A stretch of DNA of 64,000 bases from Pseudomonadota bacterium (GCA_038531945.1 JBCBBH010000001.1:147456-211455); one strand, 5' to 3'. Positions 11,201 to 36,078 are shown, numbered from the stretch's first letter. Made by a program: numbers and translations. The notes: generated by a model from the sequence alone, not told the origin.

Positions 11201-11219
11201 GCTGACGCCCAGCCGATCA

Positions 11220-16692: not shown

Positions 16693-16710
16693 ATCCACAG
16701 GGGAAAAACT

Positions 16711-17466: not shown

Positions 17467-17482
17467 ACGGCAGTCAATCGAT

Positions 17483-18391
17483 ATGGCGCGAATCAGTTTA
17501 TTCGGTGAACCACTTTTGGAGCTGGCGGGTACGCGCGCAGGTGTTGTGCTTGGACCCGCCACACTCGGCGTCGCCGGAGACACGCTCAACACTGCGGTGT
17601 ACCTCGCGCGACTCGGTCACGAAGTAAACTACATCACCGCGTTGGGCACCGACACTTACTCGGATGCCCTGATCGAGCAACTCGAAGCGGAAGGCGTGTC
17701 AACCGGGAACATCGCACAGCATCCCTCTCGCGTTCCCGGACTTTACGCGATCCGAACGGATGAGAACGGCGAGCGCTATTTTACGTACTGGCGCGACCAG
17801 TCCGCCGCACGCGACTTCTTCTCGCTGCCGGATGCAGGCGAGAAATTTGCATCCGCTATGGACGGAGACCTTTTCTATTTCAGCGGTATCTCGCTTGCGA
17901 TTCTTTCGACAGATCATCGTAGTCTGCTGCTCAACATCGCGCGCCAATGCACCTCTCGGGGTGTGCGCGTCGCTTTTGATGGCAACTACCGACCGTACGG
18001 CTGGCAGTCCAGGGAAGCGGCGAGAGACTGCCTGAACGCTGTCGGCGGAATCGCGGACGTAGTGCTGCCCACCAGCGAGGATGACGACAAACTCTTCGGT
18101 GATGCGCCGCCTATTGAGCATGCGCGACGCTGGAAAGCACTCGGTGTCGATACGGTCATCGTCAAGAACGGCCCGGACGGCGCGTGGGTGCTCAGCGGAT
18201 CGAACGACCCGACTCATGTCCCGGTGGACGAGGTCATCCAACCCATCGACACAACTGGCGCGGGCGATAGCTTCAATGCGGCCTGCCTTTCCGGCCTGCT
18301 CGAGGGACAATCGCCAGCCGATGCGGCGGCCCATGGCAACCGGTTAGCCGGACAAGTGATCCAGCATCGAGGTGCCTTGATTCCCAGGTAA
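17483..18391 (+). CDS. kdgK: 2-dehydro-3-deoxygluconokinase (PfkB family)
   Basis: PfkB ribokinase-like motifs (DTTGAGDSFNAA near the C-terminus). Its position in a uronate locus. Confidence 0.8.
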   Translation: MARISLFGEPLLELAGTRAGVVLGPATLGVAGDTLNTAVYLARLGHEVNYITALGTDTYSDALIEQLEAEGVSTGNIAQHPSRVPGLYAIRTDENGERYFTYWRDQSAARDFFSLPDAGEKFASAMDGDLFYFSGISLAILSTDHRSLLLNIARQCTSRGVRVAFDGNYRPYGWQSREAARDCLNAVGGIADVVLPTSEDDDKLFGDAPPIEHARRWKALGVDTVIVKNGPDGAWVLSGSNDPTHVPVDEVIQPIDTTGAGDSFNAACLSGLLEGQSPADAAAHGNRLAGQVIQHRGALIPR

Positions 18392-18495
18392 GACGTCGAC
18401 GCTGAACGACCTAACCAATCTCACGCTCTGGTCTTACCAATTTGCAAACCGTGCTACTATCAATTCGTTATCTGTGAGTTACGAGAACGCACGGC

Positions 18496-19254
18496 ATGCC
18501 GAATGACAAGCGCCTATACAGAAACGTCAAGGCGCGGATAGAAGAACAAATCGCTAACGGCGAGTATTCAGCGGGTTCCAGACTGCCGCCGGAGCGCGAG
18601 TTAGCAGAGCGTTTCGGAGTCAGCAGACCCACCATTCGTGAAGCCATGATTGCGCTGGAAGCACTGGGTCGCGTTGACATCAAGACCGGCTCAGGCGTCT
18701 ACGTGCGCGACATCGCTCAGCCAACCGACAATCTGGATGCTCGAATCAGCGCATTCGAGCTTACCGAAGCGCGCGCACTCATCGAAGGTGAGGCTGCTGC
18801 ACTGGCAGCGACTATGATCACGGACGAGCAACTCAAGCAGCTCGAGGCTGTCATGTTCGATATGGTCGATGAAACCGAAGACGGAGAGTTGCTCTCCGAG
18901 TTCGCGGACCAGAAATTCCACCGACTGATTTCGGAAGCGACCCGCAACACGATGATGATCAGCGTGTTCGATAAGCTCTGGTATATCCGTGATCACTCGC
19001 CCGAGGTGCACGCGGCTTACCAAGCGATCTGCGAGGACGACCCGCAATCTCGAGTGGACGAACATGTTGAGATTCTTGATGCCCTCAAGTGTCGCGACCC
19101 GAAAGCCGCCCGAGAAGCGATGCACAATCATTTCGGGCGAATTCTGAACAAGCTCATCGCCGCCGATGAGCAAGCCCAGTTCGATAGAATTCGGCGCAAG
19201 ACCCAAGAGAGCCGCGAACGCTTTTCACTTGGCCATCTTTCGACAGCACCTTAA
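18496..19254 (+). CDS. GntR-family (FadR/FCD) transcriptional regulator
   Basis: wHTH (SRLPPERELAERFGVSRPTIREA) plus an FCD domain. Confidence 0.85.
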   Translation: MPNDKRLYRNVKARIEEQIANGEYSAGSRLPPERELAERFGVSRPTIREAMIALEALGRVDIKTGSGVYVRDIAQPTDNLDARISAFELTEARALIEGEAAALAATMITDEQLKQLEAVMFDMVDETEDGELLSEFADQKFHRLISEATRNTMMISVFDKLWYIRDHSPEVHAAYQAICEDDPQSRVDEHVEILDALKCRDPKAAREAMHNHFGRILNKLIAADEQAQFDRIRRKTQESRERFSLGHLSTAP

Positions 19255-19277
19255 AGCTGTACTTGTCACCACAGCGC

Positions 19278-20222
19278 CTACTGATTCGACTTCACTTTGC
19301 TGATCGAAAAGTTCGCGAAACGCACGACCTCTTCGTCCGGTCGCAGATTGTCTCTATCGAGTATTGATCGATAAATCCCCCACTTTGGACGAACAAAATG
19401 GCCGGCGGTTGTACCACGCCACAGATCAAGATCCCCCGCATCGATATCGAAAATCACCGCGTCATCGCGTAAGCGTTTGACGATCACTCTCAGGGATCCC
19501 GTATCGGAAAAGGTCGCTCGGCAATAAGCTGTCAGCCATTCACCCTCAATCTCTGACCAATCTGATCGCTGCAGGACTTGACGCTCCGGCGGCGAGCTGT
19601 GACGGACTTCGATGCCATCTTCGCCGCGTCGTTTAGAACCCGAAATTGTCAGGATTGGTTGGCTATCATCACCACCCACCGCTTTCAATTGGAACAAGTG
19701 CGTGAAGCGGCGCGACACCGTCATGCCGTGATCAATCTTGAACTTCCAACGAAAAACTAATGTCTCCCCTTCGAAGCCTTTGACGGCATCTTCAGAACTA
19801 CTGTAAGTCTTGATCTCATTTCGCTGCCGATCCGATTTGTCGCGACGATCGCGATCTATATCGTCGTCACGATGAATAACAAAAACAAAATGCGGGCCAA
19901 CCTCGGGGTCAGAGTCTTCGTAAATATGCGCGGCGCCTGGGTGGTTGATCGAGTACAAGTCGGGCGCCTCGATGGATCGCTTGCCACCGAAGGCTCGAAT
20001 CAAATCGTAGGCATCCTTGCCCTGCCCTGCGCCGTCCGCATCCAAACGCCGTTCGCTCACCACAACGAACGCGGGCGTTTTTGTCGCGGATTCGGATTCT
20101 TCGTGCGTCTCCAAGAAATCGCCGGGAGCGGTCGAACGATTCACAGGGTCAGCGCTGCATGCAACAACAATCAATACTGCTGCAACCCATCCGATCTGCT
20201 TCTGCATAACGCTCACTGACAA
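19278..20222 (-). CDS. secreted protein, possibly a concanavalin-like (PL7-like) lyase
   Basis: Signal peptide. Loose matches to the PL7 R-x-E-L / Q-x-H / K-x-G-x-Y pattern (QRNEIK, THLFQLK, PKWGIY). Weak. Confidence 0.3.
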   Translation of the reverse strand: MSVSVMQKQIGWVAAVLIVVACSADPVNRSTAPGDFLETHEESESATKTPAFVVVSERRLDADGAGQGKDAYDLIRAFGGKRSIEAPDLYSINHPGAAHIYEDSDPEVGPHFVFVIHRDDDIDRDRRDKSDRQRNEIKTYSSSEDAVKGFEGETLVFRWKFKIDHGMTVSRRFTHLFQLKAVGGDDSQPILTISGSKRRGEDGIEVRHSSPPERQVLQRSDWSEIEGEWLTAYCRATFSDTGSLRVIVKRLRDDAVIFDIDAGDLDLWRGTTAGHFVRPKWGIYRSILDRDNLRPDEEVVRFANFSISKVKSNQ

Positions 20223-24281: not shown

Positions 24282-24358
24282 GCTAACGTAGCTCAATGTG
24301 GCAGAGCAGCTGTCTTGTAAACAGCCGGTTGTGAGTTCAACCCTCACCGTTAGCTCCA
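24282..24358 (+). tRNA. tRNA-Thr(TGT)
   Basis: Full cloverleaf folded by hand. Acceptor GCTAACG/CGTTAGC, D arm TAGCTC..GAGC, anticodon loop CTTGTAA, T loop TTCAACC, CCA encoded. Confidence 0.8.
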
Positions 24359-24363
24359 TTTAT

Positions 24364-24448
24364 GGAGAGGCAATCATTGGCGAGAATAGCCGGCTGTAAC
24401 CCGGTGGTCCTTATGGCCTTGTAGGTTCAATTCCTACCCTCTCCACCA
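24364..24448 (+). tRNA. tRNA-Tyr(GTA), long variable arm
   Basis: Acceptor GGAGAGG/CCTCTCC, anticodon loop CTGTAAC, long variable arm, T arm GTAGG-TTCAATT-CCTAC, CCA. The D arm is atypical. Confidence 0.65.
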
Positions 24449-24450
24449 AC

Positions 24451-24522
24451 GGATCGGTAGCTGAGACAGAATAGCGGCTGGCTGAAGACCAGCAGACGAT
24501 GGTGCGACTCCATCCCGATCCA
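24451..24522 (+). tRNA. non-canonical tRNA-like gene, anticodon GAA (Phe-like)
   Basis: Perfect 7-bp acceptor GGATCGG/CCGATCC. Anticodon stem-loop GCTGG-CTGAAGA-CCAGC. The D loop lacks G18G19 (AGACAGAA) and the T loop is TGCGACT, so T54-Psi55-C56 is absent. No encoded CCA. Confidence 0.45.
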
Positions 24523-24526
24523 CCGT

Positions 24527-24602
24527 TGCCGTGTAGCTCAACAGGTAGAGCAGCCGACTGTTACTCAGTTTGTTGATGGTTCAAATCCATCCATGGCAGC
24601 CA
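24527..24602 (+). tRNA. tRNA-Asn(GTT)-like
   Basis: Acceptor TGCCGTG/CATGGCA with disc G and CCA. Canonical D and T arms. Anticodon loop CTGTTAC with C37 and one C-A mismatch in the anticodon stem. Confidence 0.55.
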
Positions 24603-24606
24603 CCCC

Positions 24607-24682
24607 GGGGGATTAGCTCAACGGGTAGAGCACCTCGTTTGCAACGAAAAGGCTCTCGGTTCAAATCCGAGATCCTCCACCA
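24607..24682 (+). tRNA. tRNA-Ala(TGC)-like (G3:U70 present)
   Basis: Acceptor GGGGGAT/ATCCTCC with a G3-U70 wobble. Canonical D and T arms. Anticodon loop TTTGCAA, but the anticodon stem has two C-A mismatches at its base. Confidence 0.5.
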
Positions 24683-25152
24683 AATTTCGAGTCATCGGTA
24701 TTACCGAGGCTCTTGATAGCGGCCTGGCGCTGCTAACCGTCGGTAACGGCGGGAAAGGAACGCACCCATGGCGTTTCGCCGAGACTTGAGTTTCGGTCAC
24801 TCCAGGCAAGTTCGGCCTCCGGTTGTTCTCGGCACTGTCGGGAATAGCGGCCAAGCGATACGCGGAAGTAGCGTGACTGACGCACCGGCAATGTCGGGAA
24901 TGCGGGTCCGTGAAAGAACACGTGGTGGTGCAACCCGCGACACCAATATCGTCAACCGTGAGAGGTAACGAATAGTGCAGTTCAGTGCGAGCCTTGCAGG
25001 CAAGTGCGACTGTGCAGAAGGCGAGGGTTCTGGTGGTCAGCCAGCGTCCTTTTCATCGGTCAAGTAGCCGGCAGGTGAACGACATTCGGCGTGTTGTATT
25101 TCGTCGCCCAAAAGGTGGCGAAGCGACTGAGGCGCGCACGTCGCAGTGGGAT

Positions 25153-25223
25153 TGTGATTTAGCTCAATGGCAGAGCGATTGCCCAGCAAGCAATAGGTGC
25201 AGGTTCGACTCCTGTGTTCACGA
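25153..25223 (+). tRNA. non-canonical tRNA-like gene (anticodon loop CCAGCAA, C33, A34-G35-C36)
   Basis: Canonical D arm (TAGCTCAATGGCAGAGC) and T arm (GCAGG-TTCGACT-CCTGT). Perfect anticodon stem ATTGC/GCAAT. The loop carries C33 and A34. The acceptor has one mismatch. No CCA. Confidence 0.35.
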
Positions 25224-25579
25224 CTAACGTCAAACGCAAAGACGCGCCTCGGTACGCCGTCGAAAATGGCTTAAGGCCGGAGTCTACGGACAATCCGGCG
25301 GTTGGATCAGCCGCAAGTTGATCGGACCTTGGCAGCAAGCCGCACGGTCGGGAAGCCCCCGTTTGGAGCCCGCAAGGCTCACGGTACGCAAGCTGCTGAC
25401 TAGACGTGTACTACAAGTGCATCGCCGCACTTCAAAAAAGGCAGTCATGGTCTTCGACTGTCGAGTTGGCTTCGGCCAATCGGCAGTGGACAAGCACGCA
25501 ACGAGTGTCACGCACGGCATTCGGTACTCGTGCGAACGGAGGACTACAAAGCGCCTAGTCTCAGCGCTTTTCCTTTTCC

Positions 25580-25655
25580 GCCACGATAGCTCAATCGGAA
25601 GAGCATCGGATTGTCGATCCGAAAGATGTCGGTTCGAGTCCGATCCGTGGCGCCA
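25580..25655 (+). tRNA. tRNA-Asp(GTC)
   Basis: Cloverleaf folds cleanly. Anticodon loop TTGTCGA, T loop TTCGAGT, CCA. One A-C mismatch at 7-66. Confidence 0.8.
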
Positions 25656-25661
25656 TTCTTC

Positions 25662-25737
25662 GATCCTGTGGGCTAACGGTTAGGCCACCAGACTTTCAAT
25701 CTGGGGATTGCGAGTTCGAGTCTCGCCAGGATCACCA
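25662..25737 (+). tRNA. tRNA-Glu(TTC)
   Basis: Acceptor GATCCTG/CAGGATC, anticodon loop CTTTCAA, T arm GCGAG-TTCGAGT-CTCGC, CCA. Confidence 0.8.
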
Positions 25738-25739
25738 AA

Positions 25740-25866
25740 TGACCAGTAGCTCAGCGGGTAGAGCACACGCCTGATATGCGTGAGGTCGCACGTTCAACGC
25801 CAGGCAGGATGCCTCAGTGCCGCGTAGCACAGGACGTGCGAGAGCGGCCCGTCGCCTGGTCAACCA
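25740..25866 (+). tRNA. split/interrupted tRNA-Ile(GAT)-like gene (about 68-nt insertion replacing the T arm)
   Basis: The 5' half is canonical: acceptor TGACCAG, D arm, and anticodon arm CACGC-CTGATAT-GCGTG plus variable AGGTC. The matching 3' acceptor CTGGTCA-A-CCA is found only at 25856-25866. The intervening 25788-25855 forms three hairpins rather than a T arm. Confidence 0.35.
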
Positions 25867-25872
25867 AACACT

Positions 25873-25949
25873 CTGCGTGTAGCCAAACTGGATAAGGCCC
25901 CTGACTTCGAATCAGGAGATTGAGAGTTCGAGTCCCTCCGCGCAGGCCA
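25873..25949 (+). tRNA. tRNA-Arg(TCG)
   Basis: Acceptor CTGCGTG/CGCGCAG, anticodon loop CTTCGAA, T loop TTCGAGT, CCA. One mismatch in the T stem. Confidence 0.7.
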
Positions 25950-25955
25950 AACACT

Positions 25956-26033
25956 CTGGGAGTAGCTCAGCCTGGTCAGAGCACTTGCCTTGGAAGCAAG
26001 GGGTCGCTGGTTCAAGTCCAGCCTTCCAGACCA
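25956..26033 (+). tRNA. tRNA-Pro(TGG)
   Basis: Acceptor CTGGGAG/CTTCCAG, anticodon stem-loop CTTGC-CTTGGAA-GCAAG, T arm GCTGG-TTCAAGT-CCAGC, CCA. Confidence 0.8.
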
Positions 26034-26058
26034 ACGTTTCGAAACCGGAGCGCTACAA

Positions 26059-26146
26059 GGAGACTCGCATGGCTGGCGTGCTTATCGGTCTTGAAAACCG
26101 TGATGTCCTGACGGGCGTGGGGGTTCGATCCCCACAGTCTCCGCCA
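26059..26146 (+). tRNA. tRNA-Ser(TGA), long variable arm
   Basis: Acceptor GGAGACT/AGTCTCC, anticodon CGGT-CTTGAAA-ACCG, long variable arm, T loop TTCGATC, CCA. Position 8 is C and the D arm is atypical. Confidence 0.65.
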
Positions 26147-26152
26147 ATCGAT

Positions 26153-26230
26153 GGTGTATCTAGCTTAATCGGCAAAAGCTCCGGGCCGTGACCCCGGGAG
26201 ATATCGGTTCGAGTCCGATGATTCACCCCA
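26153..26230 (+). tRNA. tRNA-His(GTG) with G-1 and C73, anticodon loop CCGTGAC (C33)
   Basis: G-1 is present and the discriminator is C, the His identity set. Anticodon stem CCGGG/CCCGG. The loop has C at position 33 instead of the near-universal U. One T-T mismatch in the acceptor. Confidence 0.6.
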
Positions 26231-26236
26231 ATTCAT

Positions 26237-26328
26237 GGAGATGTGGCCGAGTGGCTTAAGGCACTCGTTTGCTAAACGAGAGAGGGCTCGAAAGTCCTTC
26301 CCAGGTTCGAATCCTGGCATCTCCGCCA
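26237..26328 (+). tRNA. tRNA-Ser(GCT), long variable arm
   Basis: Acceptor GGAGATG/CATCTCC, D arm TGGCCGAGTGGCTTAAGGCA, anticodon CTCGT-TTGCTAA-ACGAG, long variable arm, T loop TTCGAAT, CCA. Confidence 0.8.
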
Positions 26329-26337
26329 TTTGTCTAT

Positions 26338-26408
26338 TGAGAGGGAGGCGGTCTCAGACGAGAGTCATAACCTCGTTGTCGTCGGTTCGAATCCGACCCT
26401 CTCGACCA
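26338..26408 (+). tRNA. tRNA-like gene with CAT anticodon and truncated D arm (71 nt)
   Basis: Acceptor TGAGAGG/CCTCTCG with A and CCA. T arm GTCGG-TTCGAAT-CCGAC. Anticodon loop GTCATAA. Only about 14 nt are available for the D region. Confidence 0.4.
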
Positions 26409-26477
26409 TTACTTTCTAGCTCAGCCGGCATAACGTCGCTCTCGCAGAGAGGCAGTCGGCGAGAAAATCGAACAACT

Positions 26478-26555
26478 ACGGCTATAGCTCAGCGGAAAAA
26501 GAGCGCGACCGTGCGAAGGTCGAGGACGGAGGTTCAAATCCTTCTAGCCGTGCCA
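26478..26555 (+). tRNA. tRNA-Arg(GCG)
   Basis: Perfect acceptor ACGGCTA/TAGCCGT, D arm TAGCTC..GAGC, anticodon CGACC-GTGCGAA-GGTCG, T loop TTCAAAT, CCA. Confidence 0.65.
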
Positions 26556-26561
26556 AACCAT

Positions 26562-26636
26562 TCAGCGATCGTCTAACCGGTAGGACACCAGACTTTGACT
26601 CTGGAAGTAGAGGTTCGATTCCTCTTCGCTGAGCCA
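26562..26636 (+). tRNA. tRNA-Gln(TTG)
   Basis: Perfect acceptor TCAGCGA/TCGCTGA, anticodon CCAGA-CTTTGAC-TCTGG, T arm AGAGG-TTCGATT-CCTCT, CCA. Confidence 0.8.
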
Positions 26637-26641
26637 ACAAC

Positions 26642-26715
26642 AGGTCGCTCTTCTAACGGCAAGATAACGGATTCCAAACCCGTGAATCGGTGTTCGACTC
26701 ACCGGCGGCCTGCCA
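26642..26715 (+). tRNA. tRNA-Trp(CCA)
   Basis: Acceptor AGGTCGC/GCGGCCT, anticodon loop TTCCAAA, T arm CGGTG-TTCGACT-CACCG, CCA. Confidence 0.75.
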
Positions 26716-26721
26716 ACAACT

Positions 26722-26796
26722 GATGCTGTGGTCAAATGGCAAAGGCGCGAGGTTGCAACCCTCGAGATGACAGTTCAACTCTGTCCAGCATCTCCA
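26722..26796 (+). tRNA. tRNA-Cys(GCA)
   Basis: Perfect acceptor GATGCTG/CAGCATC, anticodon CGAGG-TTGCAAC-CCTCG, T arm GACAG-TTCAACT-CTGTC, CCA. Confidence 0.8.
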
Positions 26797-26885
26797 CGGC
26801 CAGACACAGCGAGTAGTTCAAACATCGGACGCTCCGTCGACGAATCGATTTATGAGATAGCGGCCAGAAAAGGCTTTCTTGAAGC

Positions 26886-29228
26886 TTACCGCACACCCAA
26901 TGGCGTGAACTCGTATCGCTCAGAAACTGCGCATCGCTGCAATGATCGCGTGACGACGACGCCGGACGATATGAAATTCACCGTGATGTCGCGATGGTCG
27001 ATTGCACCCTGAAACGATCCTTGTGCGGACTCAATGATCAGTACCTGCTTGGAATCATCGTAGTGCAATTGGGTGACTCGACGTTCACCGCGGCGCCACG
27101 CCTCAGTACGGTCATCGTCTTCGATCAGACGAAAGTGACCATTGGCTCCGGTGTACACGTCTATCACTAACTTCGACTTGTCGATAAAGGCAGTGGTGAG
27201 TGCGTACTCTCGTTTCGGAATGATGGCACCAGCACGGACGTAAAGCGGCATGGCGTTGTTCTCTTGGGTAAGTACTTGCTCGCCATCGAGAAGGTCGCCA
27301 CCACCGAGTGGATACCAGCCACCGTTTGGAAGCCAGACGCTGGTGTGGCTTTGATCGACAACCGGTGCAACAAGAATGCTGGGGCCGAACATAAACTGAA
27401 GATCGCGCTTCCAAGCAGATTCACTGTCAGGAAACTCGAGTAACATCGGCCTTGCGATAGGCAGGCCGGTGTCGGCAGCCTCATGCGCCACCGAATACAG
27501 ATAGGGCATCAACTCATAACGCAGTCGCCCATAGCGGTGTGCTGCAGCAACGCTCGATTCACTGCGATCAAGAGGCCAGCGCGACTGACCCATACCGTGC
27601 GGTTTCCAAATGGGTGCGAACGCACCAAGCGCCATCGCCCACCGTTGATATAGCGATTCGTCGGGACCGCTGCCTTGGTCCCAATCGAAAAAGCCGCCGG
27701 CATCATGCCCCCAAAACGGGAAGCCAGCGAGACCGGCCAATTGCATCGCACGGATCTGCGACGCCATATCGTCGTCGTTGGGTTTAATATCACCGCTCCA
27801 TAGCGTCGCATAGCGTTGGGCGCCCGCGGTCATGCCGCGCACCCATACGAAAGGTCGATTGATGATCGGTGACCGATCCCAACCCTCTGCCACGAGCGCT
27901 TTGGCGATCAAAAAAAACCAGTAGTTCCGCATCTCGGCTGAACTGCGCCCATTGGCAAGCACGATGTCTTTCGGTGCCGCGCCCTGCTCGTCGAACTCGT
28001 CGATCCAAAGCGCATCACCCGGGAAGTTGAGAGCGGGATTTAGTGATTTCTCGTAAAACACCTGCCAGAACCAGCGACGAAAGTCCGGGTTCGTCAAATC
28101 CGGCGCACTTTCCGGAAACTCGATATTGTCGATCGTCGGAAGATTAAACGACGAAGTCCAGCCGTCCGAGAAACGTGCGATGCAGCGGTTGAAGTCGATC
28201 GTTGAGACCAACCCATTGCCTTCCAGCCATGTTGCCCAGGCGACAGGATCTGGGTAGCGAGTTCGGTCCCATTCGATTTTCGACTCACAACGCTTGCCGC
28301 CCGCCGCGCGCCACCGGTTATCGTTGACCACGTGATCCAACGGCAGTCCCGCAATACGGTGCGATTGGATCTTGTCTTTCCACCACGCTTCATCGGAAGG
28401 CGTATCAGAGTTGTGATCGTGACCCTTGTCCGACAGCTGCAGGCCGAACATCGACTTCATTGGCAGGCGTGGACGGCCCGTCAATTGTGTATAGCGATCG
28501 ACTACTGCCTTCAACGAAGGTCCCGCGATGAACACATAGTCCATCTGTCCGGTAAACCCGTGGGTGTCAATCGCGATGCTGTAGTCCCCATCCGCATTCA
28601 ATGCAAATCGGTTAGGGAACGTACTGTTGAGAAAGACGCCGTAGCCGCGACTCGATAGATAAAAGGGAACGATTAGCGGTGCCTGCTCGACGGGTTCGCT
28701 GCCATAGTTGCGCTCTACGATGGAACCCGAAAGATCTAGCCGATCCGCGCGCGCGAAATAGCCGTGGCCCAGACCGGTGAAGCGCTCGCCGTCCACGGGC
28801 ACGAATCGAACACCGCGTTCGTCGCCTGCTCGGTACGAGCCCATTTTTTCTTGCAGAATCGGTGTGGTGCTTTGTGCGGTCTCGAATGAGACTGCTAGCG
28901 TTTCGCGATCGATCACCACTTTGAGTTCACTCGATTGCAGTACCACTGTATCGCTGTTAGTTGCGACATCAACACTGCTCGTCCAATCGTGTGACTCGAT
29001 CATCTCGTAATAGCTATCCGGCAGAAACGCCTCGCCGTCGTGGGCGGTTTGCAGACGTACCATTGCGTCGCCGAACCACAATATTCTGAGGGTGCGCGAA
29101 CCATCTGGCGACTCGACATAGAACGCACGAGAGTCGGTATGGAACTGGGACGCTGCACAGCCGCACAGGACTAAGACGGCAGTGGCGAGCAGGCTGAGTT
29201 TCACTTGTGTTTTTGTCGGCACGTTCAT
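26886..29228 (-). CDS. glycoside hydrolase family 31 (alpha-glucosidase/alpha-xylosidase-like) lipoprotein
   Basis: GH31-like core with a candidate nucleophile region (ALWIDEFDE). Start re-set to ATG 29228 (MNVPTKTQ...LVLCGCAAS lipobox). The track's 39-aa extension overlaps the neighbouring gene. Confidence 0.7.
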   Translation of the reverse strand: MNVPTKTQVKLSLLATAVLVLCGCAASQFHTDSRAFYVESPDGSRTLRILWFGDAMVRLQTAHDGEAFLPDSYYEMIESHDWTSSVDVATNSDTVVLQSSELKVVIDRETLAVSFETAQSTTPILQEKMGSYRAGDERGVRFVPVDGERFTGLGHGYFARADRLDLSGSIVERNYGSEPVEQAPLIVPFYLSSRGYGVFLNSTFPNRFALNADGDYSIAIDTHGFTGQMDYVFIAGPSLKAVVDRYTQLTGRPRLPMKSMFGLQLSDKGHDHNSDTPSDEAWWKDKIQSHRIAGLPLDHVVNDNRWRAAGGKRCESKIEWDRTRYPDPVAWATWLEGNGLVSTIDFNRCIARFSDGWTSSFNLPTIDNIEFPESAPDLTNPDFRRWFWQVFYEKSLNPALNFPGDALWIDEFDEQGAAPKDIVLANGRSSAEMRNYWFFLIAKALVAEGWDRSPIINRPFVWVRGMTAGAQRYATLWSGDIKPNDDDMASQIRAMQLAGLAGFPFWGHDAGGFFDWDQGSGPDESLYQRWAMALGAFAPIWKPHGMGQSRWPLDRSESSVAAAHRYGRLRYELMPYLYSVAHEAADTGLPIARPMLLEFPDSESAWKRDLQFMFGPSILVAPVVDQSHTSVWLPNGGWYPLGGGDLLDGEQVLTQENNAMPLYVRAGAIIPKREYALTTAFIDKSKLVIDVYTGANGHFRLIEDDDRTEAWRRGERRVTQLHYDDSKQVLIIESAQGSFQGAIDHRDITVNFISSGVVVTRSLQRCAVSERYEFTPLGVR

Positions 29229-29242
29229 ACTCAGGTGTTCGG

Positions 29243-29974
29243 CTAGTTCGAGAAACCCCAAAGACCAATGTTGTCGAATTGAACACGCTTCGGCAGTTGC
29301 AGCAGGAAAAGCACCGCAGCGGCAAGGTCTTCGGTTTGCAACCAACCCGGTGTCATCTCATCCGCAACTTTGGGCTTTGGCACTTGCACAAGACCTGGGC
29401 ACAAGCTGTGAACCTTGATGCCGAATTCGCGGACTTCTTCCTGCAAGGCGAGTCCGAAACCAAGAACGCCGAACTTCGCGGCGCAGTAAGGCGCTGCCTC
29501 GGCGTAACCATTCTTGGCCGCTTGCGACGCGATATTGATGATGAAGCCGCTCCGGTTCGCCTGCATGGTCGGCAGCACCGCCTGACTCATAAGGAACGTA
29601 CCTTTGGTACAGGTCTCAAGTACGAGATCCCAGTTGGCCTCGGGACAATCGATGACCTTATCGGTCACACCGAGTCCCGAATTGTTGATCAAGAAATCAA
29701 CGCCGCGGTATTGAGCGAGTGTCTCTTCGACGATCGCTTGAACCTGCGCTTTGACACGCACGTCGGCAGCGACTCCGATGCAGTTCGACTCAAACTCATC
29801 GTTGAGTTCCGCCGCAGTTTCGGTGAGCAGGTCTGCACGTCGCGATGTGATCACCACGTCGACACCGCTCGCCATCAGGCCCCGAGTAATCGCCAGGCCG
29901 ATACCCGAGGCACCACCCGTGACAATGGCCGTTTTCCCTCGCAAATCGCTTGAGGAAGCAGTCAGTTCATTCAT
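29243..29974 (-). CDS. SDR-family oxidoreductase
   Basis: KTAIVTGGASGIGLAI Rossmann motif. Start re-set to the internal ATG 29974. The track start 30094 would run into the tRNA-Lys gene. Confidence 0.75.
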   Translation of the reverse strand: MNELTASSSDLRGKTAIVTGGASGIGLAITRGLMASGVDVVITSRRADLLTETAAELNDEFESNCIGVAADVRVKAQVQAIVEETLAQYRGVDFLINNSGLGVTDKVIDCPEANWDLVLETCTKGTFLMSQAVLPTMQANRSGFIINIASQAAKNGYAEAAPYCAAKFGVLGFGLALQEEVREFGIKVHSLCPGLVQVPKPKVADEMTPGWLQTEDLAAAVLFLLQLPKRVQFDNIGLWGFSN

Positions 29975-30013
29975 GGCTCGGCAGTATAGATCAGGTCTGC
30001 TTGATGCATCATC

Positions 30014-30089
30014 GAATCGATAGCTCAATCGGCAGAGCACCCGGCTCTTACCCGGGAGGTTGTGAGGTCGGAACTCACTCGATTCACCA
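30014..30089 (+). tRNA. tRNA-Lys(CTT), T loop GTCGGAA (non-canonical T54)
   Basis: Perfect acceptor GAATCGA/TCGATTC with A and CCA. Anticodon CCCGG-CTCTTAC-CCGGG. T stem GTGAG/CTCAC, but the loop starts with G rather than T. Confidence 0.6.
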
Positions 30090-30095
30090 AACAAT

Positions 30096-30170
30096 AGCCC
30101 GATAGCTCAGCAGTAGAGCACCGCTCTCACAAAGCGGAGGTCGGTGGTGCAACCCCACCTCGGGCGACCA
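30096..30170 (+). tRNA. non-canonical tRNA-like gene, anticodon CAC (Val-like)
   Basis: Anticodon CCGCT-CTCACAA-AGCGG. The D loop AGCAGTA lacks GG and the T loop is TGCAACC, the same co-variation as in the Phe-like gene at 24451. A1-G72 mismatch. CCA encoded. Confidence 0.45.
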
Positions 30171-30307
30171 CTTTTGACGCAATTCCGTCATACCGAGGTC
30201 TGAATTGTCGCCAAGTTCTGCGGACCGGGTTCTTTGAATTCCCGACTGGCGCGCAACGCTAACCATCGCCGCGCGTGTACCGAACGAAACGGCATTCTCA
30301 CCGCCAC

Positions 30308-30384
30308 TGGAAATTAGCTCAGATGGGTAGAGCATACGACTCATAATCGTACGGTCGCAGGTTCAACTCCTGCATTTCCCACCA
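30308..30384 (+). tRNA. tRNA-Met or tRNA-Ile2 (CAT)
   Basis: Anticodon TACGA-CTCATAA-TCGTA. Canonical D and T arms. The 1-72 pair is a T-C mismatch. CCA. Confidence 0.7.
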
Positions 30385-30681
30385 CTGGCTTCCACAGCCA
30401 TCCTGGCGAAAAGAACGAGAGTTCTGCGGTTCGAATCCGCCCTTGCAGAGAGATTCTGCACCACCGCGACTGTGTCCAGCGAACGGCAATGCGAGCTTGC
30501 TCGCGTTGTCTGACGCAGCAACCGGTTCGCCGGTCGCCGTGCTGGTCCGTACGCCGAACCGATTCCCGAAACGACGCCGGACTGTGTGCGCTCGCACTCG
30601 CGTCGTGTGTCGAATCGCGTCTCGGTTCCGCCTACGCACCACCGGCTGCCCGCGCACGGGTTGTGGACACAGCCGCACCCA

Positions 30682-31269
30682 TCAAAAATCCGCGCCTGAC
30701 TTCAGCGTAAACACCACAGAAATCTCAAGTTGGTTGTTGCGCTTCTCGGGCGTTGCGAGAAGCGCGAATTGACCAAGTGCTTGAGAGCGAGCGATGTCCC
30801 GTTCAGAAAGCAGAGAGTCGTCGGCAAGAAAGACCTTCGGCGCCCATTGGTTTCCGTACTCTTCGGATACCAATGTGAAGTGAATATGGGCGGCCTCGCG
30901 GCCGAGATGGTCCGCAGCCGGACGGATGGTTTGGAACACAAACTCACCGCATTCGTCTGTGATCGCCCAACCTTGCAATCGCCACATCGTGAGCTCGCGA
31001 TCGTTTCGGCCCAGTTCGAAACCTTCAGCGTCGCGATGATAGGAATGCACGACGACGTTGGGTGCGACTTCGCCAACAGGCGTAAAGACTGTCCCGCGCA
31101 CTACAAGCGGCTCACCCGGCTCATCGGGCGAACCAATCCGCGACACCGATGACAATGGAACACTCTTTGCCGCAATCGCTTCGTGCCAAGCGCGAAGCCA
31201 GGCTGGATCAACGTCGCCGGCAACAGAAGCGCCGCTCCATAGCGCTGCGCAAAGAACCCAATATTTCAT
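30682..31269 (-). CDS. secreted intradiol ring-cleavage dioxygenase-like protein
   Basis: Signal peptide. AAHIHF iron-ligand-like motif. Size and pattern resemble small protocatechuate-dioxygenase-like lipoproteins. Confidence 0.4.
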   Translation of the reverse strand: MKYWVLCAALWSGASVAGDVDPAWLRAWHEAIAAKSVPLSSVSRIGSPDEPGEPLVVRGTVFTPVGEVAPNVVVHSYHRDAEGFELGRNDRELTMWRLQGWAITDECGEFVFQTIRPAADHLGREAAHIHFTLVSEEYGNQWAPKVFLADDSLLSERDIARSQALGQFALLATPEKRNNQLEISVVFTLKSGADF

Positions 31270-31357
31270 CCACGACCCTCAGTTGGACTTCACTTCCTGT
31301 TAGATAGTAGATCGGACTGAGAGGTTTAACTCACTGACCAACAAAGGAGGTGCTTTG

Positions 31358-32644
31358 ATGGCTCACTCATCGAGCCAGGCCAGTCGCGTAGCCGACTGGG
31401 TACGAAATCGCAACGAGCAAGCACTGGCTTTGGCGCGTCGCGAGAACAAACGCATGTTTCCGACTACAGAAACATACAACGATAACAACCAAGGAGAACG
31501 CAACATGTTTTACATGAAGTTCAACGTGCGCAAGCACGAGCGTGCACTCCTGTTCCGCGACGGCGATTTCGTCAAGTTCCTTGAGCCTGGCGTGCACCGT
31601 TTCGTGACGGTTTTGCACAAGTACACGGTCGAATCGTTCGACATCACGGTACCGCTATTCGCACACCGGCTGCAGGACTTCCTGGTGGAGTCCTACGCAG
31701 AGGATGTCGCTCGCTACTTCGACGTAGTGACGACCGATGCCAATGAGATCGCCATCGTCTACCACGACGAGCGTGTCACGCTGATCATGGCTCCAGCCAC
31801 GCGCCATCTCTTCACGAAGGGTGTGCGCAAGATTCGCGTCGAGCGCTTTGCGATCACCGGTGATGTCGACGTCGACGCCCGTTTGGCCAAGCGCCTGTTG
31901 ACGGGCGACGACCGAACGTTGCAGGCGATCGCTGAGAAGGCGATCTACGCGCGCATCGTGTCGGACGGCCACGTGGGCTTGCTCTACGTGGATGGTGAAT
32001 TGAAGCGCTCACTGGCACCGGGTTACCACGCGTTTTTCGCGGTGGAGCGCGATGTCGAGGTGAAGTGCTTCGATACGCGTGTGCAGACGCTGGAAGTCTC
32101 CGGCCAGGAAATCCTGACCAAGGACAAGGTGGCTGTGCGCATCAACCTGACTGCAACCTACCAGTACGCCGATGTGGAAGCGGCTGTGCGTGCTGCGAAG
32201 GACCCGCTGGATCACCTGTACAAGGAAGTGCAGTTCGGTTTGCGCGGTGCGGTCGGTACCCGAACGCTGGATGCTTTGCTTGAAGACAAGACGGTCATCG
32301 ACACGTCGGTGGCACGTCATCTCGATGAGCACTTCGAAGCAATGGGTATCACGGTGAAGTCCGTTGGCGTGAAGGACATCATCCTGCCGGGTGACATGAA
32401 GATGTTGCTGGGTCAGGTGGTGGAGGCCGAAAAGGCCGCGCAGGCCAACGTGATTCGCCGTCGCGAAGAGACCAACGCGACCCGTTCACTTCTGAACACC
32501 GCGAAGGTCATGGAGACGAACGCTGTGGCGTTGCGTCTCAAGGAGCTCGAGACGCTCGAGAAGATCACCGACAAGATCGGCAACATCTCGGTTTACGGCG
32601 GCCTCGATGCCGTGTTGAACGACCTGGTTCGCATGAAGCAGTGA
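31358..32644 (+). CDS. SPFH/Band-7 (stomatin/flotillin-like) domain protein
   Basis: Band-7 core (ILTKDKVAVRINLTATYQ...KDIILPGDMK...EAEKAAQANVIRRREETNA). ATG 31358 has an AGGAGG RBS. A second possible start, ATG 31505, also has an AGGAG RBS. Confidence 0.8.
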   Translation: MAHSSSQASRVADWVRNRNEQALALARRENKRMFPTTETYNDNNQGERNMFYMKFNVRKHERALLFRDGDFVKFLEPGVHRFVTVLHKYTVESFDITVPLFAHRLQDFLVESYAEDVARYFDVVTTDANEIAIVYHDERVTLIMAPATRHLFTKGVRKIRVERFAITGDVDVDARLAKRLLTGDDRTLQAIAEKAIYARIVSDGHVGLLYVDGELKRSLAPGYHAFFAVERDVEVKCFDTRVQTLEVSGQEILTKDKVAVRINLTATYQYADVEAAVRAAKDPLDHLYKEVQFGLRGAVGTRTLDALLEDKTVIDTSVARHLDEHFEAMGITVKSVGVKDIILPGDMKMLLGQVVEAEKAAQANVIRRREETNATRSLLNTAKVMETNAVALRLKELETLEKITDKIGNISVYGGLDAVLNDLVRMKQ

Positions 32645-32728
32645 GTTCGACCAACCGGCGAGAGGTCAGGTGCAAGGCCTGGCCTCTCGCCATCTATTCG
32701 CCTTCGGTGTACCGAAGGCAATCCCAAC

Positions 32729-32804
32729 GGTGAATGTAGCTTAATGGCAAAGCCCCAGGCCGTGACCCTGGAAGATGCCGGTTCGACCCCGGTGGTTCAC
32801 CCCA
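32729..32804 (+). tRNA. tRNA-His(GTG) with G-1/C73, anticodon loop CCGTGAC (C33), second copy
   Basis: G-1 plus discriminator C. Anticodon stem CCAGG/CCTGG with the same C33-containing loop as the His gene at 26153. One G-G mismatch at 7-66. Confidence 0.55.
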
Positions 32805-32810
32805 AACACT

Positions 32811-32888
32811 AGCCGTCTGAAGGGAATTGGCATACCTACCTGTCTTAGAAACAGGTGCTTCTCGGTTCGACTCCGAGGGCGGCTACCA
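32811..32888 (+). tRNA. Leu-anticodon (TAG) tRNA with short variable arm (class-I-like)
   Basis: Leu-type D loop (GGAATTGGCA) and A73. Perfect anticodon stem CCTGT/ACAGG with loop CTTAGAA. It has a 5-nt variable loop in place of the long arm that all bacterial tRNA-Leu normally carry. Confidence 0.55.
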
Positions 32889-32943
32889 ATTTTTCTGGGC
32901 AGAGCTGACTGGGCGTCTTCAGGGCGTGGTACCAATGGCGTGA

Positions 32944-34032
32944 ATGCCTACTCCTTGGGTTCACTCTCGTCTTTATTCGTGGCCGATACGCACGCACAAT
33001 CAGGTAGGGTGCATTGAGTCGAGCATCGGAATTAGCAGACGGCGAATAGTTGTGACCACACGAACTCGAAACGTTCTCCTGTTCGGCCTACTCGTTGTGG
33101 TCGGAATCGCAATGGTCAAGATACGAAATCCGAGCGTCGACCTCGCTGTTGATCGACAAGATATCGGCAGCACTGTATCCGCGGAGGAAATCCCAAAACC
33201 AGGGGCGATAACAACTCTGGCCGACGCGCCCGGCGATGCGTTCGCTGATGCCGCAGCTTCAGCGGTCGCTACCGTCCCTGACGAGACCTGCGTCCGAGCC
33301 AAGGACGTGGAGATGCTGCTCTTGAGTTCCAGTGAGCCGCAGCGAATTCAAAACCTGATGTCCTACGGAGAGTGGTTCAACGACTACGCCGGCGTCGATG
33401 AAGCAACACTCGAATCACTTGCTGATCAACTCGACACCAAGGCGATGATCGTCCTTGGGACTCAAGCCGAGTTTCGTGCCATCGGTAGGGACCCTGCACT
33501 GGCGGTCGAGAAACTCAACGGAAGTGCCGTGAGAGAGAATGTCCAAAACAATGCCTTTGACGCTTGGTTGCGAGACCGAGAACGTATCGATGCCCATCGA
33601 AAAGATGTCGAAGCAGCTCGCGACTGGTATTACCAAGCTGCACTCCTTGGCGATCTCGGCGCTCTCCCTTTTCTTGGTGACGTACAGCTGGCGTTAGAAG
33701 AAACACCCGTAAGTCTCGGTTGGATTAGCCAAGAGGACTTCGATCAACTCCCTCGGCAGGCGCAAAACCCTAATGAGGTGCGTGGCGCTTATGGTGTGGC
33801 GGCTACTCGAATCGCTCCGAACGCCGGTACTGGATACGCTGGTTTACTACAGGGAATCTACGAGATATCGCTTACGCATAAGCCGTTCGCGGACGCGTTA
33901 GCGGAACAGTACAAACGCGACCGCGCCGATCTCGGCCTGCCACCGCTTGAGGTTCCACCGGCTGAGATTTCTCTGGATGAGTTAAGAGACCTTGCGGCAC
34001 GGCTCTGTCCTGGCGAAGAAGATTTCCTCTGA
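32944..34032 (+). CDS. hypothetical membrane-anchored protein
   Basis: N-terminal TM segment (VLLFGLLVVVGIAMV) and an acidic/helical C-terminal domain. No recognisable family. The start is uncertain. Confidence 0.4.
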   Translation: MPTPWVHSRLYSWPIRTHNQVGCIESSIGISRRRIVVTTRTRNVLLFGLLVVVGIAMVKIRNPSVDLAVDRQDIGSTVSAEEIPKPGAITTLADAPGDAFADAAASAVATVPDETCVRAKDVEMLLLSSSEPQRIQNLMSYGEWFNDYAGVDEATLESLADQLDTKAMIVLGTQAEFRAIGRDPALAVEKLNGSAVRENVQNNAFDAWLRDRERIDAHRKDVEAARDWYYQAALLGDLGALPFLGDVQLALEETPVSLGWISQEDFDQLPRQAQNPNEVRGAYGVAATRIAPNAGTGYAGLLQGIYEISLTHKPFADALAEQYKRDRADLGLPPLEVPPAEISLDELRDLAARLCPGEEDFL

Positions 34033-34090
34033 CCAACAGTCTTGGTCAACACCATGATCGAGCTTGGCTCGACAAATGGCCTCAACCAAA

Positions 34091-34167
34091 GCGCAGCTGA
34101 CGGGAAAGGCATACCTGGATAGCTCAAACCTATTCGTTTCCCCGTTCGAATCGGGGGCTGCGCACCA
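34091..34167 (+). tRNA. Leu-anticodon (CAA) tRNA-like gene with short variable arm, 45 nt upstream of the HNH-RtcB operon
   Basis: Perfect acceptor GCGCAGC/GCTGCGC with A73 and CCA. T arm CCCCG-TTCGAAT-CGGGG. Anticodon GATAG-CTCAAAC-CTATT. The D region TGACGGGAAAGGCATACCT is paralogous to that of the TAG Leu-like gene. 5-nt variable loop. Confidence 0.5.
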
Positions 34168-34211
34168 ACTCCCTCTGAACAATCCACATTGTTGAAGTCG
34201 TGAGAAGAACG

Positions 34212-34799
34212 ATGATGGAACAAATTTTGAAACTCGATGTGGGCGGAAGACCGATTGGTTGGATCACCCAGGAACAAGGCGCGCTGCTGTATTGCAGAGA
34301 TCAAGTCGCGTGGGAAGCCGGCGACCAGACGATCGTGTTACGCGGTGGATTCTCGCGTGTGACGGGACACCGTTCGATGTTGACGATCAACAGTATCGTC
34401 GCGACCACGAGCATCGACCAGTCGGCAGACAACTGGGCCGGCGGAACGGCGCTGACGAACGCGGCACTGTTCCGACGGGATCAGTACCTGTGCTTGTACT
34501 GCGGTGGATCGTTCAGCCGATCCGCGTTGACGCGAGATCACATCGTTCCGGTTTCGCGCGGCGGTGAGGACTGCTGGGAAAACGTTGTGACCGCGTGTCG
34601 CGCCTGCAATCAGCGGAAGGCGGATTTTCTGCTAGCCGAGTGCGGCATGTCGTTGCTGGCAACACCGTACGTCCCTAACCGAGCCGAAGGATTGATTTTG
34701 AATAATCGGCGAATTCTTTGCGACCAGATGGCGTTTCTGCAAACGCGCGTCGGTCCGCAAAGTCGAGTCGCTAGGACGAACAAGAGAGAAGAACAATGA
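34212..34799 (+). CDS. HNH endonuclease
   Basis: CLYCGG...TRDHIVPVSRGGEDCWENVVTACRACNQRK is a classic HNH/HNN zinc-finger nuclease motif. Its stop overlaps the rtcB start (ATGA). The track start is GTG 34200 and the ATG is at 34212. Confidence 0.8.
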   Translation: MMEQILKLDVGGRPIGWITQEQGALLYCRDQVAWEAGDQTIVLRGGFSRVTGHRSMLTINSIVATTSIDQSADNWAGGTALTNAALFRRDQYLCLYCGGSFSRSALTRDHIVPVSRGGEDCWENVVTACRACNQRKADFLLAECGMSLLATPYVPNRAEGLILNNRRILCDQMAFLQTRVGPQSRVARTNKREEQ

Positions 34800-36028
34800 A
34801 CAACGTAACGGAAAACTACGACGTCCTGTTTGATGGGGGCGTACCTGTAAAGCTGTGGACGCGTGGCGTCCCAACAGACGAACGCGCACTGGATCAACTG
34901 CGTAAGGCAGCCTCGATGCCGTTTATCTACAAGCACATCGCAGTCATGCCGGATATGCACGTCGGTAAGGGCTCGACCATTGGTTCGGTGATCCCAACCA
35001 AGGGCGCAATCATTCCTGCCGCGGTCGGTGTGGATATCGGTTGCGGCATGATGGCCGTGCGCACGAGTCTTAACGCGTCTGACCTGCCCGACAACCTGTT
35101 CGCGATTCGTTCGGCAATTGAAGCGGCGGTGCCGCACGGTCGGTCGAGCGGTCGCGGGAAGCGGGATAAGGGCTCGTGGGGCGAAGCGCCCGAGGCATCG
35201 TTGGATGCCTGGGGTAGCGGTCTCGCCGCGCGGTTCTCGCAACTGGTAGAGAAGCACCCTCGCCTTGCGAAGACGAACAACTTGAACCACCTGGGAACGC
35301 TCGGAACAGGCAACCACTTCGTTGAAGTGTGCCTGGACGAAGCGCAATCGGTTTGGTTCATGTTGCACTCGGGTTCGCGCGGTGTCGGTAACGCGATCGG
35401 GATGCACTTCATTGCGCTGGCTCAGCGTGAGATGGAGCGCTTCTTCATCCACCTGCCGGATCGGGATCTCGCCTACCTTGCCGAAGGCACCGAACACTTC
35501 GACGACTACGTCGAAGCGGTCGGTTGGGCGCAGGACTTCGCGCTGGCAAATCGTCGCGTGATGATGCTGCACACGATCCGTGCGGTGCGCGATGCGCTTG
35601 CTCGCCACTTCGATGCGGAACTTGAGGCCGTGAACTGTCACCACAACTACGTGGAGCGGGAGCATCACTTCGGTGAGAACGTACTCGTGACGCGCAAGGG
35701 TGCGGTCAAGGCAACGAAGGGTACGATGGGCATTATCCCAGGCTCGATGGGCGCCAAGTCGTTCATTGTGCGCGGACTCGGAAACGAGGAGAGCTTCTGC
35801 TCTTGTTCGCACGGTGCCGGTCGCATCATGTCGCGGACGCAAGCGAAGAAGGCGGTGTCGTTGGCCGAGCACAAGGCGGCGGTGGCGCACGTCGAATGCC
35901 GGGTCGATGCCGATGTTGTGGATGAAACGCCATCCGCGTACAAGGACATCGATGCGGTGATGGCGGCCCAGGATGATCTCGTTGAGATCGTCCACACGCT
36001 ACGCCAGGTCGTTTGCGTGAAGGGCTAA
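34796..36028 (+). CDS. rtcB: RNA-splicing ligase RtcB (3'-phosphate/5'-OH RNA ligase)
   Basis: RtcB family motifs include ...HNYVEREHHFG... and ...CSCSHGAGRIMSR. About 410 aa. Confidence 0.9.
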   Translation: MNNVTENYDVLFDGGVPVKLWTRGVPTDERALDQLRKAASMPFIYKHIAVMPDMHVGKGSTIGSVIPTKGAIIPAAVGVDIGCGMMAVRTSLNASDLPDNLFAIRSAIEAAVPHGRSSGRGKRDKGSWGEAPEASLDAWGSGLAARFSQLVEKHPRLAKTNNLNHLGTLGTGNHFVEVCLDEAQSVWFMLHSGSRGVGNAIGMHFIALAQREMERFFIHLPDRDLAYLAEGTEHFDDYVEAVGWAQDFALANRRVMMLHTIRAVRDALARHFDAELEAVNCHHNYVEREHHFGENVLVTRKGAVKATKGTMGIIPGSMGAKSFIVRGLGNEESFCSCSHGAGRIMSRTQAKKAVSLAEHKAAVAHVECRVDADVVDETPSAYKDIDAVMAAQDDLVEIVHTLRQVVCVKG

Positions 36029-36033
36029 ACCGG

Positions 36034-36078
36034 GTGGCCATTTTCAATTCATTGGAGTTGAGGATGGCCACTTTTTTT
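36034..36078 (+). terminator. rho-independent terminator after rtcB
   Basis: GTGGCCAT...ATGGCCAC hairpin followed by TTTTTTT. Confidence 0.65.

Follow-up and report, generated by a model that had tools for sequence, protein, structure and literature searches.

Results

The two genes that end the tRNA array

The window analyzed here, a 64,000-nucleotide stretch of DNA from a Pseudomonadota bacterium, carries an array of 23 tRNA genes called by ARAGORN at 24282..34167, all on the + strand and all with an encoded CCA, with a few protein genes interposed. The final two members of this array have leucine anticodons: tRNA-Leu(UAG) at 32811..32888 (+), referred to below as tRNA1, and tRNA-Leu(CAA) at 34091..34167 (+), referred to as tRNA2. 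A sequence-only reading of this DNA had singled them out as leucine-anticodon tRNAs that lack the long variable arm, and ARAGORN confirmed this description, giving the same coordinates and a variable region of 5 nt. tRNA1 reads AGCCGUC-UGA-AGGG-AAUUGGCAU-ACCU-A-CCUGU-CUUAGAA-ACAGG-UGCUU-CUCGG-UUCGACU-CCGAG-GGCGGCU-A-CCA, and tRNA2 reads GCGCAGC-UGA-CGGG-AAAGGCAU-ACCU-G-GAUAG-CUCAAAC-CUAUU-CGUUU-CCCCG-UUCGAAU-CGGGG-GCUGCGC-A-CCA.

Both genes specify an elongator cloverleaf, with a 7-bp acceptor stem that is perfect or includes G:U, a canonical T arm (5-bp stem, loop GTTCRAnn), an anticodon loop of 7 nt in which U33 is present and the purine at position 37 is A, and A73 followed by the encoded CCA. 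[quoted passage not shown] Neither gene has the variable arm of more than 10 nt forming a stem-loop that characterizes class II tRNAs; with a 5-nt variable loop and a Leu anticodon, both are short-arm (type I) tRNALeu genes. Moreover, position 26 pairs with the first nucleotide of the variable region, as A:U in tRNA1 (variable region U-GCUU) and as G:C in tRNA2 (variable region C-GUUU), so that the unpaired variable loop comprises 4 nt. The D-arm UGA-NGGGAA..GG.AUACCU is common to both genes, and this shared motif bears out the earlier proposal that they are paralogues with a Leu-type D loop and A73. The D loop of tRNA2 is 1 nt shorter than that of tRNA1, a form present in 16 of the 233 members of the family described below.

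Folding predicted a cloverleaf with a 6-bp anticodon stem as the minimum-energy structure of tRNA2. For tRNA1, the lowest-energy structure is not a cloverleaf and is an artefact, but the centroid retains the acceptor and extended anticodon stems. The outcome that the sequence-only reading had set against its own description, an alternative fold with a long variable arm, was looked for by folding as well; none was predicted, and there is no room for such an arm in 77–78 nt.

The general tRNA model of Rfam (RF00005) gave tRNA1 a score of 37.3 bits, above the gathering score of 29 bits, and returned no match to tRNA2 even at E ≤ 10 on a 101-nt stretch. The core geometry of the two genes is atypical, and a general tRNA model responds weakly to one and is blank for the other. 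A covariance model built from the family (R1) scored them at 91.3 (tRNA1) and 81.4 bits (tRNA2), with the next best tRNA of the window at 42.7 bits, a signal well beyond chance, although the two scores are partly by construction because both genes were in the training set. An identical copy of tRNA1 is found in one contig (L190) and a copy of tRNA2 differing by 1 nt in another (L134), both from the metagenome-assembled genome (MAG) "Pseudomonadota bacterium J06563_6", whose Band 7 protein is 98.9% identical to that of the window; the window is thus closely related to this MAG. As each of the two genes has its own near-identical orthologue in other genomes, they are old paralogues and not the product of a recent duplication.

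Gene content and neighborhood of the array

With 23 genes in 9,886 bp, all on the + strand, the array has a density of 2.3 per kb. An L-array is defined as at least 20 co-oriented tRNA genes at a density of at least 2 per kb (PMC4758250), and the window array has this size and density as well as the HNH and rtcB neighbors of such arrays. Its gene order recurs in compact arrays of relatives, for example in loci L123, L158, L168, and L197. tRNA-His(GUG) at 32730..32804 (+) ends 6 nt upstream of tRNA1, and the same His-Leu pair is present in L190. Further upstream, an SPFH/Band 7 protein gene lies inside the array at 31355..32644 (+) (Pfam PF01145, E = 9e-29); tblastn with its product yielded matches in 20 loci at 40–99% identity, in many MAGs, inside or beside tRNA arrays and upstream of Leu tRNAs, and the gene thus forms a conserved module with tRNA-Leu, HNH, and RtcB. 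While the Leu genes are contiguous in most related arrays, in the window they are separated by an inserted ORF of 362 aa at 32944..34032 (+), which has no Pfam match and a homologue only in L134.

Downstream of tRNA2, an HNH endonuclease gene occupies 34200..34799 (+) (Pfam HNH_5/HNH), with a likely ATG at 34213, about 45 nt past the tRNA. The HNH homologue starts 25–47 nt past the last short tRNA-Leu in 22 other loci, and the placement of the CAA copy directly upstream of the HNH-RtcB genes, already recognized in the sequence-only reading, is therefore a conserved junction. The RtcB RNA ligase gene follows at 34796..36028 (+) (Pfam PF01139, E = 6e-127), overlapping the HNH stop codon, and RtcB homologues are present in 23 loci. 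Directly after rtcB is a terminator-like hairpin of 19 pairs and a T run (36032..36073, +), the only strong one in the window; no terminator-like site was found between tRNA2 and the HNH gene. This hairpin is probably the end of a tRNA-HNH-RtcB transcription unit, in which the L-array is probably co-transcribed with the HNH endonuclease and RtcB genes.

None of the array tRNAs reads UUA, a codon that accounts for 4.5% of the Leu codons in the ORFs of the window, and the genome must therefore have further Leu tRNA genes outside the array. It does contain two tRNA-His genes and several anticodons that are unusual for bacterial chromosomes, namely Ala(AGC), Arg(UCG), and Arg(GCG) instead of Arg(ACG) (25153–25224, 25873–25949, 26478–26555); this composition is consistent with a foreign, phage-like tRNA set. 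In addition, an unannotated tRNA-like gene is present at 26338–26409 (+); its anticodon is CAU, its D arm is reduced while its T arm is canonical, and it has A73 and CCA. It was missed by ARAGORN and Rfam and scored 24.7 bits with the family model, and related arrays have a "tRNA-Met with the anticodon at position 30-32" at the corresponding site.

The array is flanked by an alginate/polysaccharide utilization cluster, genes for a TonB-dependent receptor, a DEAD-box helicase, and a TRAP transporter, and metabolic genes, and the window further encodes GH31 and large FG-GAP surface proteins. That the window derives from a phage was considered and rejected, given these flanks and the lack of phage or integrase genes among the ORFs scanned; the window is bacterial chromosome. 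Within positions 1–20000, the alginate/polysaccharide cluster includes the TonB-dependent receptor, chondroitinase-B-like and heparinase II/III/alginate lyases, a TRAP transporter (DctP/DctM), an SDR protein, and a PfkB kinase. The polysaccharide cluster points to a marine polysaccharide-degrading gammaproteobacterium.

A short-arm tRNALeu family in phages and bacterial arrays

The sequence-only reading had proposed a search of other genomes for the D-arm signature, which we carried out with the pattern TGA-N-GGGAA-N(1-2)-GG-NN-TACCT, 27 free bases, GTTCGA. The pattern fixes the D-arm, the class I spacing, and GTTCGA, and leaves the anticodon, the discriminator, the variable loop, and the stems free. 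At least 120 loci were recovered from IMG/VR and 96 from a collection of genomes of 185,579 species. Nearly all of the 96 genomic matches lie in tRNA arrays of 10–37 genes per 8 kb. They often belong to gammaproteobacterial MAGs (Woeseiaceae, Rariloculaceae, Foliamicus) with a window-like gene order and two to four tandem short-arm Leu genes at the end. Parsing the viral and genomic matches listed gave 233 distinct sequences from phages and bacteria, and the window pair is thus far from unique, contrary to what the first description implied.

Searching deposited phage genomes with tRNA1 by blastn matched 112 records, among them T4-like Acinetobacter phages, large Streptomyces phages, and Aeromonas, Vibrio, and Pseudomonas phages, as well as Salicola phage SCTP-2 and one mycobacteriophage. 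The matching site is often annotated as tRNA-Leu and often carries no annotation. The copies in Pseudomonas phage 16Q, Acinetobacter phages AB1I1M-1 and vB_AbaSI_3, and Streptomyces phage Lululemon have the same UGA-NGGG-AA..GG.AU-ACCU D-arm, a short variable region, A73, and a UAG anticodon, and their acceptor stems are wholly different in sequence yet complementary. The copy in mycobacteriophage EniyanLRS is of another subtype, with the canonical 2-nt connector and a UGC/GCA D stem. No match was obtained with tRNA2 against phages by blastn or with tRNA1 against plasmids. The CAA lineage escapes detection by sequence similarity alone but is recovered by the pattern.

The fetched loci also contain other short-Leu subtypes with the D-arms UGAUGCAA..GGCAGACAU and UAGCCCAA.GGCAGAGGC, so the arm has been lost more than once, or its loss has repeatedly diversified. 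Most family members, like the two window genes, encode CCA. The short-arm family is underannotated: generic tRNA models score it weakly or miss it, and the site is left without a feature in several phage records. A literature search for a short-arm tRNALeu family in phages or arrays, or for its architecture, found no description, and the architecture of the family seems to be undescribed so far.

Several further tRNAs of the related loci are unusual. An Ile-anticodon UAU tRNA of 89–96 nt with a long variable arm occurs in related arrays and phage contigs (L123 7191–7283; L158 3785–3877 (−); L132 4025–4119 (−); and L018, L031, L043, L045, and L102 of IMG/VR) and is absent from the window. The loop of its arm is conserved as CCAGAUAAG or CAGAUUAG. 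It has a class II shape with an anticodon that is not Leu, Ser, or Tyr, a mirror image of the short-arm Leu tRNAs. Most family members with a GAG anticodon have C33 in the loop UC-GAG-AG, as opposed to the near-universal U33 (e.g., L005, L029, L043, L109, L150). Finally, a CUA-anticodon, amber-suppressor-like tRNA, called "Pyl" by ARAGORN, lies directly upstream of the short-arm tRNA-Leu of Acinetobacter phage AB1I1M-1 (L002 1417–1488) and is unannotated in the record.

Conserved elements and covariation

Among the 233 distinct sequences from the matches listed, the anticodons are CAA in 74, UAG in 68, UAA in 45, GAG in 23, CAG in 21, and AAG in 1, so all six Leu anticodons occur and 232 of the sequences carry one of them; the single exception has ACA. 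The same set has U48, the last nucleotide of the variable region, and G45 without exception (233 of 233 each), A73 in 231, and A at the position aligned with A20a of E. coli in 218. By exact parsing, A15:U48 is present in 100% of the family. A cruder table of A15:U48 and A73 per isotype, compiled from 2,858 ARAGORN calls, was set aside as its position finding was unreliable (67% for the family versus 100% by exact parsing).

A standard pair at 26:44 is likewise present in all 233 sequences from the matches listed (C:G in 80, A:U in 54, G:C in 51, U:A in 25, and G:U in 23). It extends the anticodon stem to 6 bp across the family, and its mutual information of 1.60 bits was the highest among the column pairs tested. 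The 26:44 pair, U48, G45, A73, and the anticodon were all unfiltered in the family set, whereas conservation of the D-arm is fixed by the search pattern and is not independent evidence.

In an alignment of 119 sequences, 99.2% of the cells of the cloverleaf with the sixth anticodon-stem pair were paired versus 60.7% in shuffles, and at most 50% were paired in slid controls, percentages that are slightly inflated because the sequences kept were those with mostly paired stems. The covariation score for the same 119 sequences was 0.96 versus 0.20 in shuffles. Double changes were observed at all pairs of the acceptor and anticodon stems and at four of the five pairs of the T stem. Position 10 is A, C, or U opposite an invariant U, so the D stem of the family is either GGG/CCU or, like that of E. 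coli tRNALeu, GG/CC plus G.A; these columns are invariant, and covariation cannot decide between the two. The window genes match every element of the family: the D-arm UGA-N-GGG-AA-N(1-2)-GG-N-A-U-ACCU, a standard pair between positions 26 and 44, an anticodon for Leu, and G45, U48, and A73.

Discussion

The two genes at the end of the window array are new members of a widespread type I tRNALeu family in phages and horizontally spread L-arrays. The family resembles an E. coli-type class II tRNALeu whose arm is reduced to N44-G45-Y46-N47-U48, with N44 paired with position 26 in a 6-bp anticodon stem and one extra nucleotide in the acceptor-to-D connector (UGA-N). Alignment with E. coli class II tRNALeu shows D loops of equal length and almost identical sequence (GAAUUGG.AUA compared with GAAUUGGUAGA), and the E. 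coli tRNA shares A73, A14, A15:U48, G18G19, and A20a with the window genes. However, it has an arm of at least 13 nt and a 2-nt connector, whereas the window genes are armless and have one extra connector nucleotide. The family also differs from class II tRNALeu in its obligatory Watson-Crick or G:U pair at 26:44 and its invariant G45.

The identity set of E. coli LeuRS consists of A73, A14, the A15-U48 Levitt pair, G18G19, and A20a (PMC9976931). E. coli LeuRS needs neither the anticodon nor the long arm, and a truncated armless tRNALeu remains active (PMC9976931). With numbering inferred from the alignment to the E. coli D loop, the set is complete in both window genes (A73, A14 with U8, A15:U48, G18G19, and A20a). 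Moreover, the six anticodons from two codon boxes all occur on a single scaffold, almost to the exclusion of others, a pattern explicable only if leucine identity resides in the scaffold. We consider it probable that the window pair are leucine-accepting decoder tRNAs of an accessory L-array, charged by the host LeuRS via the retained identity set. The host LeuRS would leucylate the short-arm tRNAs through the kept A73, U8:A14, A15:U48, G18G19, and A20a, and the leucylated tRNAs would then work on the ribosome, the UAG copy reading CUA/CUG and the CAA copy reading UUG. The suggestion that the two tRNAs might be charged differently or serve a non-ribosomal role found no positive evidence; the Leu anticodon is kept throughout the family but for one sequence, the identity elements of E. 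coli LeuRS are retained, and no gene for an aminoacyl-transferase lies nearby among the ORFs scanned.

The long arm is required by SerRS and partly by bacterial TyrRS but not by LeuRS, which leaves tRNALeu as the one class II tRNA that could do without it. Consistent with this, long arms are retained in the window array by tRNA-Ser (88 and 92 nt) and tRNA-Tyr (85 nt). Across the fetched loci, 196 of 199 Ser tRNAs are at least 82 nt long and 73 of 74 Tyr tRNAs at least 80 nt, and 414 of 516 Leu tRNAs measure 81 nt or less, a ratio biased by the choice of loci for holding short Leu genes. Short and long Leu tRNAs occur together in some arrays, where a single LeuRS must therefore act on both kinds.

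The premise of the sequence-only reading that bacterial tRNA-Leu is always class II does not hold. The tRNALeu(CAA) of Streptomyces coelicolor is of type I, its variable loop measuring 5 nt as in the family, and is leucylated by the LeuRS of that species (Fan et al. 2019, PMC6614811). This tRNA coexists with class II tRNALeu, the LeuRS that leucylates it is the single one, and the U8:A14 pair is important (PMC6614811). E. coli LeuRS fails to leucylate it (PMC6614811), and it follows that not every bacterial LeuRS accepts a short-arm tRNALeu. The S. coelicolor tRNA is nevertheless not of the same family: its variable loop is A44-C45-A46-G47-C48, in contrast to N44-G45-Y46-N47-U48 with an obligatory 26:44 pair, and the ACAGC loop with C48 rules it out against UGCUU and CGUUU with U48 in the window. 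It resembles instead the "UAGCCCAA..GGCAGAGGC" short-Leu type of other loci. It is also a single chromosomal gene, while the window genes are members of an array.

A short-loop tRNA-Leu(TAG) in a tRNA cluster of Mycobacterium mucogenicum/phocaicum, noted in one sentence (Behra et al. 2019, PMC6582537), is a second exception to the always-class II rule, as are the members of the present family annotated as tRNA-Leu in cultured phages. Like the window genes, the mycobacterial tRNA belongs to an accessory cluster, and a normal long-arm isoacceptor is found elsewhere in that genome. Its type differs, however, the related EniyanLRS copy having the canonical 2-nt connector and the UGC/GCA D stem. 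The tRNALeu of animal mitochondria has the class I shape and the A73 and A14 identity elements of the family but an unrelated sequence, a degenerate elbow, and a dedicated mitochondrial LeuRS.

Published L-arrays are spread by horizontal gene transfer, supernumerary, and enriched nearby in HNH homing endonuclease and rtcB genes (PMC8421152). Like the window array, they have at least 20 co-oriented tRNA genes with HNH and rtcB nearby (PMC8421152; Tran et al. 2016, PMC4758250). These papers contain no description of a short-arm tRNALeu, and "Leu" is absent from the main text of PMC8421152. The window array differs from the published ones in being dispersed by inserted genes and in lying in a gammaproteobacterial chromosome with conserved flanks. 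The Anabaena L-array is induced by translational stress, and the L-arrays of Acidithiobacillus and Anabaena are poorly transcribed in normal conditions (PMC8421152). By analogy with Anabaena, the window array may serve as a pool of supernumerary tRNAs that is drawn on during translational stress or when tRNAs are damaged.

The presence of RtcB, a repair ligase for cleaved tRNA, in the same unit as the Leu tRNAs could also indicate that the array tRNAs, including the short Leu genes, act mainly as sponges for tRNA-targeting toxins or nucleases, or as aminoacyl donors off the ribosome, and less as decoders. The L-array authors raise the sponge idea and non-canonical roles (PMC8421152), and an atypical core might alter recognition by other proteins. 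However, a decoy needs neither the canonical anticodon loops with U33 and A37 nor anticodons limited to the six Leu triplets, and the T loops are canonical, with CCA encoded in the window genes and most of the family. In addition, no Fem-type, L/F-transferase, cyclodipeptide-synthase, or MprF-like gene is present among the ORFs scanned, and the same family occurs among ordinary decoders in the tRNA clusters of lytic phages. We regard such a function as improbable.

It is equally improbable, in our assessment, that the array is a silent relic of horizontal acquisition and that both Leu genes are disused in this genome. Insertions of protein genes break up the window array, whereas the arrays of relatives are compact; a Leu(UAA) gene, which stands between the UAG and CAA copies in many related arrays (L123, L158, L197), is absent; the D loop of tRNA2 is shortened; and L-arrays are reported to be mostly silent (PMC8421152). 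Yet all stems are intact in both Leu genes, and the two are identical (tRNA1) or differ by 1 nt (tRNA2) in a separate MAG, with compensatory changes relative to distant genomes. The shorter D loop is shared with other family members, 16 of 233 in all, and the downstream HNH-RtcB genes are intact and conserved.

Recognition of the scaffold by another synthetase, with deliberate mistranslation of Leu codons as by mistranslating Streptomyces tRNAs, is very improbable: although a class I shape means that one of the features setting Leu apart from class I tRNAs is gone, and although one type I tRNALeu was not leucylated by E. coli LeuRS (PMC6614811), leucine is the sole common factor of the six anticodons borne by 232 of 233 scaffolds, the (near-)invariant A73 and A15:U48 are Leu determinants (PMC9976931), and no anticodon-reading synthetase could handle all six anticodons.

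The short-arm scaffold, with its extra connector nucleotide, obligatory 26:44 pair, and invariant G45/U48, might represent a selected design and not a neutral deletion. Such a design would keep LeuRS identity while dropping the arm by which host tRNA-targeting toxins, nucleases, or modification enzymes recognize tRNALeu, and it could allow phages and L-arrays, together with RtcB, to keep Leu codons readable when the class II pool of the host is attacked. We offer this idea as a speculation, doubtful as it stands. In a stronger and equally speculative form, some gammaproteobacterial lineages (Woeseiaceae, Rariloculaceae, Foliamicus), with three or four tandem short-arm isoacceptors, may rely mainly on type I tRNALeu.

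Taken alone, the window is a modest result, namely two ordinary family members in an L-array. The family-level picture of six anticodons, the 26:44 pair, G45/U48, and an extra connector nucleotide has apparently not been written up and is of interest for tRNA and phage biology. A 2023 review of tRNA identity describes tRNALeu as long-armed everywhere except in animal mitochondria (PMC9976931); against this rule stands a coherent short-arm family with all six Leu anticodons, common in phage clusters and in arrays spread by horizontal gene transfer. It raises the question of whether arm loss protects accessory tRNAs from tRNA-targeting defense systems. The family is, moreover, a possible source of compact Leu tRNAs for engineering and a natural experiment in which parts of a class II tRNA LeuRS needs.
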